Source: Candidatus Adlerbacteria bacterium
GTDB taxonomy: Bacteria > Patescibacteriota > Minisyncoccia > Phycocordibacterales > SBAW01
Assembly: GCA_003135635.1 (NCBI GenBank)
Contig: PLCJ01000003.1
Coordinates: 119,087 to 165,337, forward strand
Reading direction: 5' to 3'
Length of the DNA stretch: 46,251 bases
Below, piece by piece: positions 1-8,054 of this stretch; the first letter of the stretch is position 1; each line of letters opens with the position of its first letter. The notes beneath the pieces were generated by a model. That model did no database searches, was not told the origin of the DNA, and worked only from the letters and a program-made list of their open reading frames with translations. The translations under genes were made by a program, and so were the position numbers.

Positions 1-3000
1 CATCGGAAGTAGCATGGCGTCCACCATCAAGCGCAACCATAGGACGCAAACCCGGGGGAATGATAGGAATACGAGTGAGAAACATCCACTCGGGTCTCAC
101 ATTTGCACGGATCATGCCACGCAATACTGAAAGCCGCTTGTTGGACTTTTCTCGCTCTGCCGCACCTACCTTTGGAAGAGCATCGGCTACAGTGTTTGCA
201 AGTTTCACAAGATCAAGTCCGCGGCATAGGTTATATACCGCTTCCGCGCCAATACCCGCCTCAAACATCGCACCATACTTTAACCAAAAGCGATGATATT
301 TTGGCTCATCAAGCACCGTACCCACGGCAATGGAATCAATATCGCGCTTTGCTTCCAGAAAAAGCTCTTTTATTTTATCTTTGGATTTTTCATCTTGAAG
401 ATTTTTGAGCTTGGCTTTGTATTCAGTCTCAAGCTCAGAAATAATGCGCTCTTTCTCCGCCTTATGAACAACCGTAATAATGTACCCTGCAAAATATACA
501 ACTTTTTCAAGATCACTCGCTGAAATACCGAGAATTAAGGAAAGATGCGATGGGATGGAGCGCAAAAACCATACATGCGCCACGGGTACTGCGAGATCGA
601 CATGACCCATCCGTTCCCGACGCACAATAGCCCGAGTGATTTCAACACCACATTTCTCGCATACGATACCTTTGTAACGAATGCCGCGGTATTTGCCGCA
701 ATAACATTCATAATCCCGTTCTGGACCAAAAATCTTTTCATCAAATAGAGAATTTTTTTCTGGTCTCTGGGTTCGATAGTTGATAGTCTCCGGTTTGGTA
801 ACTTCACCATGCGACCATTGAAAAATTTTATCTGGGCTTGCTGGTCTAATACGAATGGAGTCAAAATCTGCCGTTTCCGCTCCTAATGTTTTACCTATAC
901 TTCGCACCGGCTCTGCATTTCGCATAAGCTCGACATCAAGAGCCAGCCCCCGTAAGGTATGGAGCAAAACATTAAATGATGCAGGCGCGTAATGGTGGCT
1001 AATACGCTCACCACGAACGATAGCGTCAAAGGCTGCTGAGCGACCCATGATGTCGTCCGACTTTATGGTAAGCATTTCACGCAACGTATAAGCCGCACCA
1101 TAGCCCAATAGCGCCCATACTTCCATTTCACCAAATCTTTGACCGCCTCCTTGTGCTTTACCGCCAAGTGGCTGCTGAGTAATGAGCGAATAGGGACCAA
1201 TGGAACGCATGTGGATTTTATCCTCCACCATGTGATGAAGCTTAAGGATGTACATATATCCCACCGCAATATCCTGCTCAAATTGTTCGCCTGTGCGGCC
1301 GTCATAGAGTTTCATTTTCCCTGTTTCGCTGAAGCCTGCTTTCTTTAGCTCTTCCCGAATTTCTCCTTCTGTAGCACCAGCAAAGGGCGGACAGATTGCT
1401 TGATAGTTAAGAGTATTAGCGGCTAGCCCAAGATGAAGCTCGAGGATTTGACCGAGATTCATACGAGAAGGCACTCCTAGTGGAGTTAGAATAAGATCAA
1501 TTGGATGACCGTCGGCGGTATAGGGCATATCCTCTTCAGGAAGGATACGAGAAATAACACCCTTATTGCCGTGGCGACCAGCAAGTTTGTCCCCAACGGA
1601 AACTGCACGTAGTTGTGCGATTTCAATATGAATGCGCTTGATGATGCCGCTCTCCAGTTGGTGCCCTGCCTCACGAGAAAAAATCTTAATACCGATGATA
1701 CGACCGCGTTTGTCATTTTCCATCCGCAAGCTGGAATCTTTCACATCCCGCGCCTTATCTCCAAAGATAGAACGGAGTAATCGTTCTTCGGGCGTTAATT
1801 GGGTTTCTCCTTTTGGAGTAATTTTGCCTACAAGAATATCGCCCGGACGTACTTCTGAGCCAACACGGATAATCCCATCTTCGTCGAGGTTGCGGAGTTT
1901 TGCTTCAGATACATTCGGAATATCATGGGTAGTAACTTCGGGACCAAGTTTGGTATCACGCACATTGCAAACAAATTCTTCGATATGAATGGAAGAGAAT
2001 TTGCTGTCTTTAACTAGACGCTCAGAAATAACGATGGCGTCTTCATAATTAGCCCCTGACCAGCACATAAAAGCAGTGAGCACATTTTGGCCAAGTGCAA
2101 GCTGTCCCCCCTCAGTCGAGGATACATCTGCCAGGAGGCTGCCTTTTTTTACCTTATCCCCCAAAGATACAATCGGTCGCTGATGAAAACTTGTAAAACC
2201 ATTAGTACGAACAAAATTAACAAGAGAATATTCCAGTTCTTTTCCTTTTTCATTTTTAACCTTGATGTGTTTCCCATCGACTGCCGTGATGATCCCTGCC
2301 TCTTTTGCAACAACAAGCCGACCGGTATCCTTTGCCGCACGCGATTCCATACCGGTAGCAACAAGTGGCACCTCGGGCATAATGCAAGGTGTTGCCTGTT
2401 TTTGCATGTTTGAACCCATAAGCGAGCGGTTTGCATCGTCATGTTCCAAAAATGGGATCATGCATGTTGCCACTGAAAACGGCTGCTCAGCCGCGATATC
2501 GATGTAGCTCACCTCATTTCTTGGTACACGCATGGGAGAACCATCCAGCCGTACCTCTATCATCTCTTCCGCTAAAGTACCGTTCTCAATACGAGTGGCG
2601 CCGTGAGCGATTTTTTCTTTTTCTTCTTCTGCAGCATTAAGATATACGATGTCATTGGTCACTGTACTGTTCACTACTTTTGCATATGGAGTCTCGATCA
2701 TCCCAAATTCATTGAGTCGAGCAAATGTAGTGAGGCGAAGAATAAGGCCGATATTTGGGCCTTCTGGCGTATGGATGGGGCATAACCGCCCGTAGTGGGA
2801 AGGATGCACATCGCGCACTTCAAACCCTGCACGCTCACGAGTAAGACCCCCGGGGCCAAGTGCGGACATGGTACGCAAATGTTCAAGTTCCTCCAGTGCA
2901 TTCGTTTGTTGCATGAATTGAGAAAGTTGATTCGTGGTGAAAAACTCCTTGATACGTGCTTGAAACGGACGCGGGTTTACGAACTGGACAGGCAGTGTTG

Positions 3001-4060
3001 CCTCCGCATCAATCGTTGACATACGATCTTGAATATTCCGCTTCATGTGAGTAAGACCAACACGCAATCGTTGCTGAAGTGTCTCGCCAACACAACGCAC
3101 TCGACGAGAACCAAGGTGGTCAATATTATCCCCAAGTCCCTCAGGATCATTTTCAAGCTTGAGCATGTGCTCAATAACTGTCACGAGGTCATCAAGCGAG
3201 AGAGTTTTGCGCTTTAGCTCTTTTTCATCCAAAGACTTGCCAAAACGTTGATTAAAGCGGAATCGGCCAACGCGAGAAAGGTCGTATCGTTCCTCACTAA
3301 ATAATGAATTAATGTATTCTTTAGCATTTTGGGCAGTTGCGAGATCTCCATCTCGAAGATGTTTGTGGATTTCTATATACGCTTCCTCTACGGTCTTGGC
3401 AGGATCCTTCTCAAGTACCCTTTCTGCCCATTTTTTACCTACATCGGTGCGAGCGAAGAGCGATTTTATATCGCTGTCATATTGGGCACCCATCACTCGT
3501 AGGAGCGACACTGCAGGGAACTTTCGTTTACGATCGATACGAATTGAAATATCTCCGGTTCCTTCTGCTTCAAGCTCAATCCATGCGCCGCGTACCGGAA
3601 TAATTTTTGCTCCAAAATGTTGCTTACCCTTGACTTCTTCTGCAGTAAAGAAAACCCCATAGGAACGCGCAAGCTGCGGTACGATAACGCGCTCAACTCC
3701 GTTAATAATAAAAGTGCCGTGCTCAGTCATGATCGGTAAATCAGCAAGAAAGATTTCTTGCTCTTTTTCTTCATTCCGAGTTTTGTTCTTCAAACGAACT
3801 ACCGCGCGCACGGGTGCATCAAGTGTCAGCTTCTGCGCCTTGGCATAATGCTCATCATATTTCGGCTCGCCTATTTCTATCTTCAGAAATTCAAGTTCAA
3901 ATTTTTTTCCTGAATAATCCTTGATGGGAGTAAACTCTTTAAACGTCTCTCTGAATCCTTCCTTAAGGAGCCACGCAAATGAATCAACCTGGGCAGCAAC
4001 CAGGTTTGGAACCTCAACTCGAGAGGCGCGAAAACGACTAAAGAACTTTTGTTCACGCAT
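1..4060 (-). CDS. rpoBC: Fused DNA-directed RNA polymerase beta/beta' subunit (RpoB part ~4060-926, RpoC part ~925 to beyond the window edge; 3'-truncated)
   Basis: Manual translation of segments: ATG at 4060 (MREQKFFSRF...GTFIINGVERV); SQFMQQTN..HLRTMSALGPGGL; GQRFGEMEVWAL..EMLTIKSDD..LRGLALDVEL continues with no stop into MRNAEPVRSIGKTLGAETADFDSIRIRPASPDKIFQWSHGEVTKPETINYRT and PPGLRPMVALDGGRHATSD at the window edge, all in one frame. The ORF track has no closed ORF in this frame, consistent with no stop before position 1. Confidence 0.95.
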   Translation of the reverse strand, partial: MREQKFFSRFRASRVEVPNLVAAQVDSFAWLLKEGFRETFKEFTPIKDYSGKKFELEFLKIEIGEPKYDEHYAKAQKLTLDAPVRAVVRLKNKTRNEEKEQEIFLADLPIMTEHGTFIINGVERVIVPQLARSYGVFFTAEEVKGKQHFGAKIIPVRGAWIELEAEGTGDISIRIDRKRKFPAVSLLRVMGAQYDSDIKSLFARTDVGKKWAERVLEKDPAKTVEEAYIEIHKHLRDGDLATAQNAKEYINSLFSEERYDLSRVGRFRFNQRFGKSLDEKELKRKTLSLDDLVTVIEHMLKLENDPEGLGDNIDHLGSRRVRCVGETLQQRLRVGLTHMKRNIQDRMSTIDAEATLPVQFVNPRPFQARIKEFFTTNQLSQFMQQTNALEELEHLRTMSALGPGGLTRERAGFEVRDVHPSHYGRLCPIHTPEGPNIGLILRLTTFARLNEFGMIETPYAKVVNSTVTNDIVYLNAAEEEKEKIAHGATRIENGTLAEEMIEVRLDGSPMRVPRNEVSYIDIAAEQPFSVATCMIPFLEHDDANRSLMGSNMQKQATPCIMPEVPLVATGMESRAAKDTGRLVVAKEAGIITAVDGKHIKVKNEKGKELEYSLVNFVRTNGFTSFHQRPIVSLGDKVKKGSLLADVSSTEGGQLALGQNVLTAFMCWSGANYEDAIVISERLVKDSKFSSIHIEEFVCNVRDTKLGPEVTTHDIPNVSEAKLRNLDEDGIIRVGSEVRPGDILVGKITPKGETQLTPEERLLRSIFGDKARDVKDSSLRMENDKRGRIIGIKIFSREAGHQLESGIIKRIHIEIAQLRAVSVGDKLAGRHGNKGVISRILPEEDMPYTADGHPIDLILTPLGVPSRMNLGQILELHLGLAANTLNYQAICPPFAGATEGEIREELKKAGFSETGKMKLYDGRTGEQFEQDIAVGYMYILKLHHMVEDKIHMRSIGPYSLITQQPLGGKAQGGGQRFGEMEVWALLGYGAAYTLREMLTIKSDDIMGRSAAFDAIVRGERISHHYAPASFNVLLHTLRGLALDVELMRNAEPVRSIGKTLGAETADFDSIRIRPASPDKIFQWSHGEVTKPETINYRTQRPEKNSLFDEKIFGPERDYECYCGKYRGIRYKGIVCEKCGVEITRAIVRRERMGHVDLAVPVAHVWFLRSIPSHLSLILGISASDLEKVVYFAGYIITVVHKAEKERIISELETEYKAKLKNLQDEKSKDKIKELFLEAKRDIDSIAVGTVLDEPKYHRFWLKYGAMFEAGIGAEAVYNLCRGLDLVKLANTVADALPKVGAAEREKSNKRLSVLRGMIRANVRPEWMFLTRIPIIPPGLRPMVALDGGRHATSD

Positions 4061-4316
4061 ACGGTTATAAATTGTAGTAAGCGATTAAAAAACGCATAGA
4101 ACACCATTAACCGTTAAAGGCTCAAATACTTTCGCCATTGCCACAGCAGGGGGTGTATATATAAACAAAAAATAGCCAGCGCAGAAAACGCCTCCCCGCT
4201 TAGTCTTTTCCCTAAGCTCAGATGGCCCTTTTGTTTTATTTCTTTTCTACAGTTTTGAAACCCCGCTCTCAAAACTCACTCTGTCTGCTTTTGGCAGATA
4301 TCTTGCACTGGTTTCA
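4061..4316 (-). promoter_or_regulatory. Long structured 5' leader of rpoBC (candidate cis-regulatory RNA/attenuator)
   Basis: About 255 nt between the promoter and the ATG, with inverted repeats at 4284-4298, 4251-4276 and 4198-4217, and a U6 tract after a GCCA/UGGC closing helix (4167-4228). Confidence 0.45.
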
Positions 4317-4322
4317 AGTATG

Positions 4323-4352
4323 AATATAGCACCCTTGAACTCTTGAAGTCAA
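4323..4352 (-). promoter_or_regulatory. Sigma70-type promoter of rpoBC
   Basis: Minus strand TTGACT-N18-TATATT with an extended -10 (TGC). Confidence 0.6.
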
Positions 4353-4355
4353 GCC

Positions 4356-4364
4356 TTATCCACA
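4356..4364 (+). promoter_or_regulatory. Consensus DnaA box (TTATCCACA)
   Basis: Exact 9-mer, 3 bp upstream of the rpoBC -35 element. Single copy, so function is uncertain. Confidence 0.35.
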
Positions 4365-5072
4365 TTAACGTAATGGGTGTCTCCTTTTGAGCTTCCATGC
4401 CTCTATTTTTCCTCGATCGCCGGAAAGGAGGATTTTTGGTACACGGTAGATATAGCCCTCACAGGCAATAACCTCGGGTCGAGTATATGTTTCCCTTGAA
4501 GATACACGATTCTCTTCTACGGATTCAAACTTCCCCAAAACGCCGGGTAGCTGCCGTGCTGTGGCGTCCATAATGGCAAGTGCAGGTATTTCGCCTCCAG
4601 TTAAAATGTAGGGTCCAATAGAGATCTCTTCCGCCTTGAGAATTTTCTTCACCCGAGCATCTATACCTTCATATCGACCACAAATAATAATTATATTTTT
4701 GTGCCTGGAGAGCTTCTTGGCATATAGGTTAGTAAGAGATTTTCCACCCGCTGCAGTAACAATAATCTTTACTCTACCGAACTTTTTTTTAGCATTTTGA
4801 TATGAGGATGTTTTCTGTTTTCGTAAATGGGCATTGATTTTTTTTTGTATCTTTTTAACCGCATGAATAATCGGCTCAGCTTGTAACACCATTCCGGGGC
4901 CGCCGCCATAGGGTCGTTCATCTACTTTGCCCCACTTATTGTTGCGTACAAAATCACGAAGCTGATAGGTTTTAACCGAAATCTTTTTTTCTTTTTGAGC
5001 TCGGCCAAGCACAGAAGCATGAGTATATTCATCTATAACTTCAGGAAAGAGTGTAATGATGTGGAAATTCAT
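4365..5072 (-). CDS. trmD: tRNA (guanine37-N1)-methyltransferase
   Basis: FHIITLFPE, VDERPYGGGPGMVL, CGRYEGIDARV and SIGPYILTGGE motifs. Confidence 0.97.
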   Translation of the reverse strand: MNFHIITLFPEVIDEYTHASVLGRAQKEKKISVKTYQLRDFVRNNKWGKVDERPYGGGPGMVLQAEPIIHAVKKIQKKINAHLRKQKTSSYQNAKKKFGRVKIIVTAAGGKSLTNLYAKKLSRHKNIIIICGRYEGIDARVKKILKAEEISIGPYILTGGEIPALAIMDATARQLPGVLGKFESVEENRVSSRETYTRPEVIACEGYIYRVPKILLSGDRGKIEAWKLKRRHPLR

Positions 5073-5192
5073 AGTATGAAAAGACTCCTATCATCTAGAG
5101 GATTATTTCTGTGCGGTTATTCTATCTTGACTCCTCATAAGTCCACGCTTTGTGAGAAATGCTTGCGAGAAGATTTTTTTATTTTTATTCCT

Positions 5193-5546
5193 TTATAGTC
5201 GGAGATCTTCCATCGCCTCATCGACGGATTTCATCGCATGAGGAGGAGGTGTTTCGTGAGAGCCATCCCAACCTGTATCCGCACTGCCGCGACTGCTGCC
5301 CACGGGCTCCTTGATTTTAAGGTTTACGCGCGCATTGTGCTTCATACCTACTACTCGCAAAAGCGTACGAATCGCTTTAGCAGTATTGCCAGAACGGCCA
5401 ATGACTTTGCCCATATCTTCCGGATTAAGATCAAGAGTAAGCAGTACCCCCATCTCATCTACCACGCGGTTTATCTTTACATCCTCTGGATGTTCAACCA
5501 ATCCCTTCACTACAAACTCTAGAAACTCCTCATCTCTCTCTGCCAT
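5193..5546 (-). CDS. khpA: KH-domain RNA-binding protein (KhpA/YlqC family)
   Basis: LVEHPEDV..DMGKVIGRSGNTAKAIRTLL (KH GxxG); located between rpsP and trmD. Confidence 0.9.
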   Translation of the reverse strand: MAERDEEFLEFVVKGLVEHPEDVKINRVVDEMGVLLTLDLNPEDMGKVIGRSGNTAKAIRTLLRVVGMKHNARVNLKIKEPVGSSRGSADTGWDGSHETPPPHAMKSVDEAMEDLRL

Positions 5547-5590
5547 TGCAGTATATTTAATTGATTAAAACTAAACGCACTTACTGTATT

Positions 5591-6016
5591 TTATCCTACC
5601 ACCTCTTCTGGAGCAACTTCACTTTTTTCTTGAAGCTCTTTCTCATTTGAAGCCTTTGGTGAATGAGTTGAATCTTCTTGAGATACTTTTGTATCTCCTG
5701 TAAGGACTTCTTGAGTGTTTTGGCTTTCCGTTACCCTCGTTTGAGGAGTCTTCTTTGGAAGAACGTTTATTTTCTTTGCATCAATGATCTTCTTAGAAAC
5801 TAAAAGATTGTGCACGGTGTCAGAAACGGTCGCACCATGCAACATCCAATGCTTGATGCGCTCGCCCTTAAGTTCAGTACGATCAACACGAGCATCGTAG
5901 AAACCGACCATCTCAAGATAGTTTCCGGTCTTCGGTTTCTTTTTGGAATCAACGACAATTACTCGAAATGAGGGATCGTTTTTCCGGCCATGTCGCTGCA
6001 GTCGTATAGTAATCAT
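5591..6016 (-). CDS. rpsP: 30S ribosomal protein S16 with acidic C-terminal extension
   Basis: MITIRLQRHGRKNDPSFRVIVVDS..YLEMVGFYD..GATVSDTV. Real start is ATG 6016, not the ORF-track start at 6172. Confidence 0.95.
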   Translation of the reverse strand: MITIRLQRHGRKNDPSFRVIVVDSKKKPKTGNYLEMVGFYDARVDRTELKGERIKHWMLHGATVSDTVHNLLVSKKIIDAKKINVLPKKTPQTRVTESQNTQEVLTGDTKVSQEDSTHSPKASNEKELQEKSEVAPEEVVG

Positions 6017-6047
6017 ATTTTGAAAAATGTCCCCAAGGGCAACGCAG

Positions 6048-6076
6048 ACTGTAGCAGGCAACTGGCAATACGTCAA
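6048..6076 (-). promoter_or_regulatory. Sigma70-type promoter of rpsP-khpA-trmD
   Basis: TTGACG-N17-TACAGT with TGC extension. Confidence 0.6.
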
Positions 6077-6101
6077 TCTCCGCGGTATAGTACACGCGTT
6101 T

Positions 6102-8054
6102 ATGTCTCCACATAAAAATAGATCTACGAGACAGAAAAAAATAATAACTGGAATCATACAAATCGCTCGCAACGGAAAAGGATATATTGCTTGGCCAGAG
6201 GAGGCCAGTAAAGAAGATGCGAGAATAGAAAATCAGGACCTTTTAGGAGCGCTCAACGGTGACCTCGTTGAAGTAGCGCTGACGAAGTTTTCTTCCCCGC
6301 CGCAAGGAAAAGTTTTAAAAGTGATCAGCCGTGCTAAGAATGAGTTTGTTACAACCCTCAAAGAGATCGAGGGACAGTGGTTCGCTGTTCCCGTTGACCC
6401 AAGATTTTATCGTACAATTCATTTAATTGGGGTGCCAGAAAATACCACTGCCAACAGCAAAGCTCTCATACGCCTTATATCATTTAGCGGCAGCGCAGAC
6501 CCAGAGGGTGAAATAATCACCCTTATCGGACCAGTCGGCGAGCACTATGCAGAAATGAACGCTATTGTGCTTGAACATGGATTTGCAATTGAGTTTCCAG
6601 AAGAAGTCAAAAAGGAAGCACGTCTAATAGAAGAGCACCATGCGAGGACTATTGCAGAGGAAACGATACACCGGAGGGATTATCGACAATTATCCACCCT
6701 TACTATTGATCCAGCTGATGCTAAAGATTTTGATGATGCGCTTAGTGTGCATGAGCTTAGTCATGATGAATATGAAATCGGCATACATATTGCGGATGTG
6801 ACCTTTTTTGTGAGACCAAAAACAGCGCTTGATACAGAAGCGAGAAAACGTAGTACGAGCGTGTATCTTGTCGATGCGACTATACCGATGCTTCCGGAAG
6901 AACTCTCTGGAAATGTATGCAGTCTGCGAGAAAATGAAGATCGTCTTACCTTTTCTGCCGTATTTCGTATGAATAGACAAGCCAAAGTGCTCGAGCGACG
7001 ATTTGAAAAAAGTATCATTCGATCAAAAAAACGTTTTACTTATGAAGAAGCGCAGATAACACTTGATACACAACAGGGTCTGTATTTTCACGAACTTACC
7101 GTACTGCGAGATCTCGCACGCATTCTCAAAAAAGAGCGAGAGCAAATGGGCGCGATAGATTTTGGCGATGCTAATGAGGTGCATTTTACGCTTGATGAAA
7201 AAGGAACTCCGGTGAGTGTAAAGCGTGTGGATCGGCTTGAAACTAATACGCTTATTGAGGAATTTATGCTTCTTGCTAATCGCGAAGTTGCTCAGTATGT
7301 TTCAAAACTTACACAGAACATTCCAGAAAAAAGTCCCCTATTTCTCTACCGTATTCATGATACGCCAAAAGAAGATAGGATCGAGGAGCTTGCTACTTTT
7401 GTACGCGCCATCGGATATGATTTTGGCAATAAAAAAAGAAATCATTCTCCACGCGATATAATCAAATTGTTAAAAGATATTGAAGGTACAGCCGAGGAGA
7501 ACCTTATTCGCACAGCGACTGTGCGCTCAATGGCCAAGGCAATCTATTCTACAAAAAATATTGGACACTTTGGACTGATGCTTCGACACTACACACATTT
7601 TACTTCTCCGATACGGCGCTATCCAGATATACTCGTACATCGTATACTCCTATCACATCTCAACCACAAACTGCTGACGCAGGAGGAATTTAGCAACCTT
7701 GAGCAACTATGTATTGCCGCAAGCGAACAAGAAGCAAGGGCAGTAGCCGCTGAGCGGGAAAGTATACGCTATAAGCAAGTGCAATATATGACTAGTAAAA
7801 TTGGACAGGAATTTGATGCTCTTATCTCAGGCGTAACAGATTGGGGTTTGTATGTAGAAGAAAAAGAGACCTCTGCCGAAGGGTTGGTGCGAATACGTAC
7901 TCTGGGAAATGAATATTTTAATTATGTTGCAAAAGAATATGCACTTGTGGGAGAACAGAGCAAAAAAAAATACACGCTGGGTGACCAGGTGCGAGTTAAA
8001 TTAGTCGCGACTGATCCAGCAGCACGAACATTGGATTTTGCCTTGATTATCTAA
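6102..8054 (+). CDS. rnr: Ribonuclease R (RNB family)
   Basis: TIDPADAKDFDDALS, IHIADVT, YTHFTSPIRRYPD and a C-terminal S1 domain. Start placed at ATG 6102. Confidence 0.93.
   Translation: MSPHKNRSTRQKKIITGIIQIARNGKGYIAWPEEASKEDARIENQDLLGALNGDLVEVALTKFSSPPQGKVLKVISRAKNEFVTTLKEIEGQWFAVPVDPRFYRTIHLIGVPENTTANSKALIRLISFSGSADPEGEIITLIGPVGEHYAEMNAIVLEHGFAIEFPEEVKKEARLIEEHHARTIAEETIHRRDYRQLSTLTIDPADAKDFDDALSVHELSHDEYEIGIHIADVTFFVRPKTALDTEARKRSTSVYLVDATIPMLPEELSGNVCSLRENEDRLTFSAVFRMNRQAKVLERRFEKSIIRSKKRFTYEEAQITLDTQQGLYFHELTVLRDLARILKKEREQMGAIDFGDANEVHFTLDEKGTPVSVKRVDRLETNTLIEEFMLLANREVAQYVSKLTQNIPEKSPLFLYRIHDTPKEDRIEELATFVRAIGYDFGNKKRNHSPRDIIKLLKDIEGTAEENLIRTATVRSMAKAIYSTKNIGHFGLMLRHYTHFTSPIRRYPDILVHRILLSHLNHKLLTQEEFSNLEQLCIAASEQEARAVAAERESIRYKQVQYMTSKIGQEFDALISGVTDWGLYVEEKETSAEGLVRIRTLGNEYFNYVAKEYALVGEQSKKKYTLGDQVRVKLVATDPAARTLDFALII

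Follow-up and report, generated by a model that had tools for sequence, protein, structure and literature searches.

Are the genes for the two large subunits of RNA polymerase, rpoB (beta) and rpoC (beta'), two genes or one at the start of a 46,251-nucleotide stretch of DNA from a Candidatus Adlerbacteria bacterium? The stretch, referred to here as the window, spans positions 119087 to 165337 of contig PLCJ01000003.1 (C1) in assembly GCA_003135635.1 (G000), a 95% complete genome whose 3 contigs total 602,608 bases. A sequence-only reading of the window, made without database searches, had proposed that the C-terminus of RpoB runs in frame into the N-terminus of RpoC, that no closed rpoB open reading frame (ORF) exists in the window, and that the complete ORF should exceed 2000 residues, and all three proposals were borne out. 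The ORF list contains a single minus-strand ORF of 1353 codons that runs off the window start, and no closed separate rpoB ORF in the window; our translation across the junction is identical to the one proposed and stop-free; and on the full contig the frame continues to a stop at C1:116301, for a total of 2281 codons. We consider it very likely that this is a genuine inherited fusion, one 2281-codon gene encoding a single beta-beta' polypeptide, that would have arisen once, in the ancestor of the Candidatus Adlerbacteria family.

All Pfam domains of beta and beta' lie on this one stop-free ORF, with Rpb2 domains 1, 2, 3, 45, 6, and 7 at residues 19 to 1046 and Rpb1_1 from residue 1065. Models built for the separate subunits each recognize one half above their cut-offs, namely, the RpoB models NF001616 (1419.3 bits over residues 5 to 1046; cut-off, 896) and TIGR02013 (1402.3 bits; cut-off, 801) and the RpoC model TIGR02386 (1436.4 bits over residues 1069 to 2254; cut-off, 963.5). 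The fused protein retains an intact NADFDGD catalytic motif and, near the N-terminus of beta', intact zinc-binding cysteines. In comparisons with solved polymerases, the alignment of the beta part stops no more than about 15 residues short of the beta C-terminus and that of the beta' part begins at beta' residues 4 to 14, so the join involves little loss or gain of sequence. Among the 60 best of 129 PDB matches, no natural fusion with a solved structure was found, each chain matching one half only.

We then asked how widely the junction is shared by searching 88 genomes of the same family with a 350-residue query centered on it; 74 matched and 14 gave no match. The match was full length and stop-free in 67 genomes and partial but still stop-free across the junction in three more (G071, G066, G089), and four genomes in which it ended at a contig end before the junction (G087, G078, G042, G070) were not counted. 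The fusion is thus present in 70 of 70 assessable family genomes (69 of 69 when the unpublished G102 is left out), representing genera g1, g18, g20, and g21, or four of the family's five genera; the single g19 genome had no assessable junction. ORFs excised from four members outside g1 are 2287, 2294, 2296, and 2282 residues long. At least about 90 protein clusters with 76 to 91% identity (from 5.8 billion proteins; lengths, 1254 to 3992 residues) have the same junction. Close relatives are therefore not split, and the fusion is fixed throughout the family and inherited, providing a clean rare genomic change that marks it. Three family genomes show irregularities that are probably binning or assembly issues: G066 has a frameshift within the rpoB part, upstream of an intact junction; G074 carries two fused copies on two contigs; and G043 (5% contamination) carries, on another contig, an extra split rpoB/rpoC pair of lower identity.

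The lineage can be named from public proteins. The window protein shares 81% identity over 2242 residues with OGC83334.1 (P0155), which NCBI labels Candidatus Adlerbacteria bacterium, has a linker of the family type, and falls in the 90% cluster of the family-type protein P0055. Because of this identity and the common linker type, the window organism is placed within the lineage that NCBI labels Candidatus Adlerbacteria. Labels are not uniform, as one partial protein in the P0055 90% cluster is assigned to Kaiserbacteria.

The linker that joins the two modules has 19 residues in the window and 17 to 24 across the family, is always in frame, and varies in length only by whole codons. Its sequence is mostly M-[RK]-x-G-...-[RK]-K-T-P-G-A-E-x-S, within which [RK]K-x-P-G-A-E is the conserved portion. 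We compared ratios of nonsynonymous to synonymous differences (pN/pS) among 12 family loci with 19-codon linkers, after dropping 2 of 14 input loci that had a different linker length. The ratio was 0.095 for the last 60 codons of beta, 0.061 for the first 60 codons of beta', and 0.42 for all 19 linker codons (0.60 for the first half and 0.26 for the second), with the caveat that synonymous sites are near saturation and these ratios are rough. In the K-T-P-G-A-E columns the residues are kept while two to six codons are used per column, which shows that the junction is read as protein and that the linker is partly constrained at the amino acid level. A relic ribosome-binding site was also considered for the AGGAG string in the linker and rejected: the glycine codon may be GGA, GGT, GGC, or GGG, and the codon that precedes it is CCT, CCG, or CCC in most loci and TTA, CTT, or ACC in three.

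In the product as we picture it, the linker would act as a short surface tether between the C-terminal end of beta and the N-terminal end of beta', and the fused chain would fold, together with alpha2 and sigma, into an RNA polymerase core of the usual two-lobed form. Such a tether would force 1:1 stoichiometry and preassemble the two large subunits. We infer that the mature enzyme would keep the chain uncleaved and that tethering would help assembly. Several observations weigh against this picture. Structure prediction for the 350-residue junction piece, from an 18-row alignment, reached a mean predicted local distance difference test (pLDDT) score of only 45.6, and no RNA run was found that contains the stretch, run X6 matching only in 30-odd-base pieces at a conserved spot. 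Met1046, the first residue of the linker, is encoded by ATG in 12 of 12 compared g1 and g20 loci and could still start a free beta'. In addition, fused and split forms coexist in the 90%-identity cluster of P0091, a fused protein from elsewhere in the Paceibacteria, which suggests that the fusion state can be nearly neutral rather than adaptive.

The alternative that draws on some of these points is that the ORF is fused yet separate subunits are made, either from an internal start at Met1046 or by protease cleavage of the linker. The Met1046 ATG is retained in those g1 and g20 loci while neighboring linker codons vary, and the fused form of P0091 joins beta straight to the start methionine of rpoC. 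Nor does a missing ribosome-binding motif at Met1046 say much, since in 41 split relatives the 20 nucleotides upstream of the rpoC start are A/T-rich and have no visible Shine-Dalgarno motif; none was visible by eye just upstream of the ATG of the fused gene either. However, the position of Met1046 is occupied by Q, Y, V, A, T, or L elsewhere in the family, so a start there is not required, and the sequence upstream of Met1046 is G+C-rich coding sequence, in contrast to the A/T-rich sequence upstream of rpoC in split relatives. The constraint on the linker after Met1046, in frame with beta, is expected for a tether, and it is expected equally for a beta' N-terminal tail. Taken together, we regard production of separate subunits as unlikely and favor a single beta-beta' chain as the product.

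Assembled contigs from other sequencing runs were compared with the window. A 9423-nt contig from run X1, possibly the source sample, spans window positions 500 to 1300, and an 844-nt contig from run X2, from another study, spans positions 647 to 1300; neither shows any difference or gap. The idea that an artefact of assembly, binning, or sequencing hid a stop or indel at the junction is refuted for practical purposes: it has in its favor only the general error rate of metagenome assemblies and the fact that contigs rather than raw reads were compared, and against it stand the identical junction in an independent study's contig and the uninterrupted junctions with whole-codon length changes throughout the assessable family genomes and protein clusters. 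It is just as hard to credit that the fused gene is decaying or redundant and that a functional split pair lies elsewhere in a genome that is not closed, because a six-frame tblastn search of this 95% complete genome found no second copy of rpoB or rpoC and gave a single match spanning residues 1 to 2281, both flanks of the junction are under strong purifying selection (pN/pS, 0.06 to 0.10), the catalytic and zinc motifs are intact, and the fused gene is the sole copy across the family too, with G043 as the sole exception.

How often, then, has such a fusion arisen elsewhere? We searched evenly drawn genome samples with the same query and scored a fusion as one stop-free match spanning the junction. 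In the order sample (401 genomes, 391 matched), only G189 was fused besides six family members among the matches listed, and its excised ORF is 2342 residues long; in at least 69 further genomes (68 if the unpublished G334 is excluded), rpoB and rpoC share a frame and are separated by one to four stops. In the class sample (401 genomes, 375 matched), only G778 was fused besides the window, again among the matches listed, with an excised ORF of 2292 residues and a 10-residue linker. In the phylum sample (401 genomes; threshold, 1e-100), 14 matches span the junction, and the window's genome alone is stop-free there. On these counts, which are lower bounds because long or divergent linkers would give two matches, fusion of rpoB and rpoC is rare in evenly drawn samples. 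Open frames of more than 2000 residues had suggested fusions in seven other genomes that gave two matches (G040, G403, G320, G448, G375, G159, G150), but when excised, all seven proved to have stops between rpoB and rpoC; frame length above this value is an unreliable sign of fusion because it reads through stops in in-frame pairs. In a separate comparison, the ESM Atlas has single-protein clusters with both Rpb2 and Rpb1 in Campylobacterota, phages (Uroviricota), and Aenigmatarchaeota; with scores of 0.81 to 0.84, these are leads only.

Fusions found in other Paceibacteria are stop-free beta-beta' ORFs of 2236 to 2342 residues, and the linkers of the fused proteins listed are of several unrelated types, the second being a 10-residue type that begins [IVL]-Y-[DE]-S. 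To place these proteins we used a FastTree phylogeny of 90 concatenated RpoB and RpoC rows (2245 columns, aligned by MAFFT FFT-NS-2, with linker residues 1041 to 1069 removed). The rows comprise the query, 50 loci with both genes complete, and 39 of 119 other proteins, all full length and hand-picked so that each linker type is represented; the 4-kb loci L002 to L013 and the partial L109 were left out. The family forms one all-fused clade of 18 rows with support 100, although FastTree does not resolve its sister group. The fused state needs seven changes on this tree, at least six of them forced by well-supported branches: in the window family, P0091, G189, P0092, a 24-row all-fused clade outside the order, P0093, and Helicobacter. 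P0091 groups with the split loci L125 and L127. IQ-TREE (65 rows, every second column) gave five changes, all forced.

Approximately unbiased (AU) tests rejected a single clade of the family and P0091 (p = 6e-60), and rejection was only marginal when the family was joined with G189 (p = 0.033) or P0092 (p = 0.020). The constrained trees came from iqtree2 -fast, a kind of search that can make such trees look worse than they are. The phylogenies thus indicate that the fusion in this family arose separately from that in Helicobacter and that at least four further fusions occurred within the Paceibacteria. The sequence-only reading had suggested an independent fusion in a lineage resembling the Candidate Phyla Radiation (CPR), and this agrees with the position of the family among split relatives and far from Helicobacter. 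It had also named Helicobacter, Wolinella, and Wolbachia as the classic cases; these stand, but they are not the only ones, since several other Paceibacteria lineages have become fused independently.

Split relatives give some indication of how the genes could have been joined. In 41 of them the distance from the rpoB stop to the first rpoC ATG has a median of 18 nt (range, -38 to 208) and is at most 15 nt in 18 of the 41. The conserved end of beta and the conserved start of beta' are 54 to 66 nt apart in the family versus 57 to 277 nt in split relatives, and in the split relative G194 (L105) the distance is exactly 57 nt, in frame, with one TAG between. Such short spacers, and the single TAG of G194, mean that one substitution or small deletion could have been enough for fusion. 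In the family's ancestor, the rpoC start would have lain a few to a few tens of bases past the rpoB stop, and stop loss or a small deletion would have joined the genes.

The P0091 lineage provides a possible parallel in which both states can be compared. Its 90%-identity cluster contains five fused proteins (2282 or 2296 residues) along with separate RpoB (1077 or 1083 residues) and RpoC (1234 residues). Split RpoB ends in ...LDVELKKGAESKEKKTASDKNI and split RpoC starts with MNSNYKNPGAETDQFE, while the fused form reads ...LDVELKKKK-MNSNYKNPGAETDQFE. As judged from these protein sequences, what the fused form has lost is the RpoB tail, stop, and spacer, with the rpoC start methionine still in place, indicating that a small deletion joined beta to rpoC's own methionine. 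A junction at that residue in P0091 makes it plausible, by analogy, that Met1046, at window position 925, was the ancestral rpoC start, as the sequence-only reading had suggested. The 19-residue linker could then be the old RpoC N-terminal tail; such tails are 4 to 31 residues long in split relatives. Against this origin for Met1046, that position is Q, Y, V, A, or T in the members that branch off first within the family.

A possible benefit of the fusion concerns the omega subunit, which in Escherichia coli aids the folding of beta' and its joining of the core. A search for omega (Pfam PF01192, RNA_pol_Rpb6) gave a hit in all 14 control genomes and in none of 41 genomes from the order, 25 of them from the family and 16 from the order's other families; because the subunit is small and divergent, this result means not found rather than absent. 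Omega loss was rejected as a correlate of fusion, the result being the same in fused and split genomes. The fusion might nevertheless be adaptive, with the tether taking over the assembly role of a missing omega and Met1046 perhaps maintaining a pool of free beta', an idea that we rate as quite improbable. If omega is truly missing, this would explain at least five origins in the Paceibacteria and fixation in all Adlerbacteria. The repeated origins, together with a lineage that includes split and fused states, offer natural material for asking whether tethering affects polymerase assembly where no omega is detected. Our understanding of how RNA polymerase works is unchanged by the finding.

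The features of the locus are collected in Table 1. On the minus strand the gene order is rpsP, a KH-domain protein, trmD, fused rpoBC, dnaG, and the primary sigma factor (window 4365 to 6172 plus genome C1:113157 to 116197; L136), a context that differs from the textbook rplKAJL-rpoBC. Among 48 relatives' loci, dnaG follows rpoC in 41 and trmD precedes rpoB in 19, in fused and split loci alike, with flanks often too short to reach trmD. The listed S16 ORF encodes 193 residues from a TTG start, has its S16 domain at residues 60 to 117 only, and shares about 146 bases with the beginning of an RNase R-like ORF on the opposite strand; rpsP probably starts at a site downstream of the one listed.

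Table 1. Positions of the fused rpoB-rpoC gene, its parts, and neighboring ORFs in the window
Feature	Window position	Strand	Remarks
Fused rpoB-rpoC ORF, window part	2..4060	-	Codons 1-1353 of 2281; remainder at C1:116301-119086, outside the window
Beta (RpoB) module, residues 1-1045	926..4060	-	Pfam Rpb2 domains; start ATG 4060-4058
Linker, 19 residues, 1046-1064	869..925	-	Stop-free with frame unchanged, from translation and family comparison
Met1046 codon ATG	923..925	-	Directly after the conserved beta end; possible former rpoC start; internal start possible
Beta' (RpoC) N-terminal part, residues 1065-1353	2..868	-	Rpb1_1 from 1065; includes zinc-binding CxC...CxxC
Intergenic stretch between trmD and fused gene	4061..4364	-	Presumably promoter and leader
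TrmD ORF	4365..5072	-	Upstream of the fused gene
S16 (rpsP) ORF	5591..6172	-	TTG start
RNase R-like ORF	6027..8054	+	

The fusion itself is already known: it has been published for Candidatus Adlerbacteria, and the sequences are publicly available. One sentence in the paper 'BEAN and HABAS' (Protein Sci 2024;33:e5194, PMC11515920), which refers to Table S1 of that paper, states that beta and beta' are fused in Candidatus Adlerbacteria. This is the same feature in the same lineage as the window, and the passage in question gives no account of distribution, origin, or linker. Besides this paper and its preprint, we found no report of a CPR fusion in the literature, and the relevant passage of PMC7483510 names only Helicobacteraceae and Wolbachia as fused. 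New here are the family-wide fixation, the rarity yet recurrence of fusion across the Paceibacteria, the lineage with split and fused states, and the constraint on the linker. Database names hide the fusion: in NCBI and JGI, fused proteins with lengths of about 2280 residues appear as 'DNA-directed RNA polymerase subunit beta'', partial ones appear as 'beta,' and UniRef calls a related Jorgensenbacteria fused protein 'Multifunctional fusion protein.' Marker gene pipelines that expect separate rpoB and rpoC may mis-score such genomes.

Fusions of beta and beta' are known from engineered and natural systems. The original engineered E. coli beta-beta' fusion is said to be that of Severinov et al. 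in 1997. An engineered E. coli fusion is described as functional in bioRxiv 10.1101/2021.11.05.467461, so the enzyme can be active with the beta C-terminus tethered to the beta' N-terminus, albeit in an artificial construct and another organism. The Helicobacter/Wolinella rpoBC type (NF007172, PRK09603; 2890 positions) has the same architecture as the window protein, with beta and beta' joined in frame via a short linker. The window protein is nonetheless not a member of that equivalog (2071.5 bits; cut-off, 5372), is about 600 residues shorter, and has an unrelated linker, and the tree places Helicobacter muridarum (L080) with non-CPR outgroups, which points to an origin independent of the window family. 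Wolbachia rpoBC (NF011417, PRK14844) likewise shares the architecture of the window protein without equivalog membership (1966.6 bits; cut-off, 4632), and its separateness rests on the distance of Wolbachia from the CPR, the tree having no Wolbachia row. Among other Paceibacteria, the clade with 10-residue linkers (including L020, G778/L135, and P0096), the clusters P0116 and P0099 (labeled Jorgensenbacteria/Niyogibacteria), G189 (L095), P0091, and P0092 differ from the Adlerbacteria family in their places in the tree, and their linkers are unrelated to its own.

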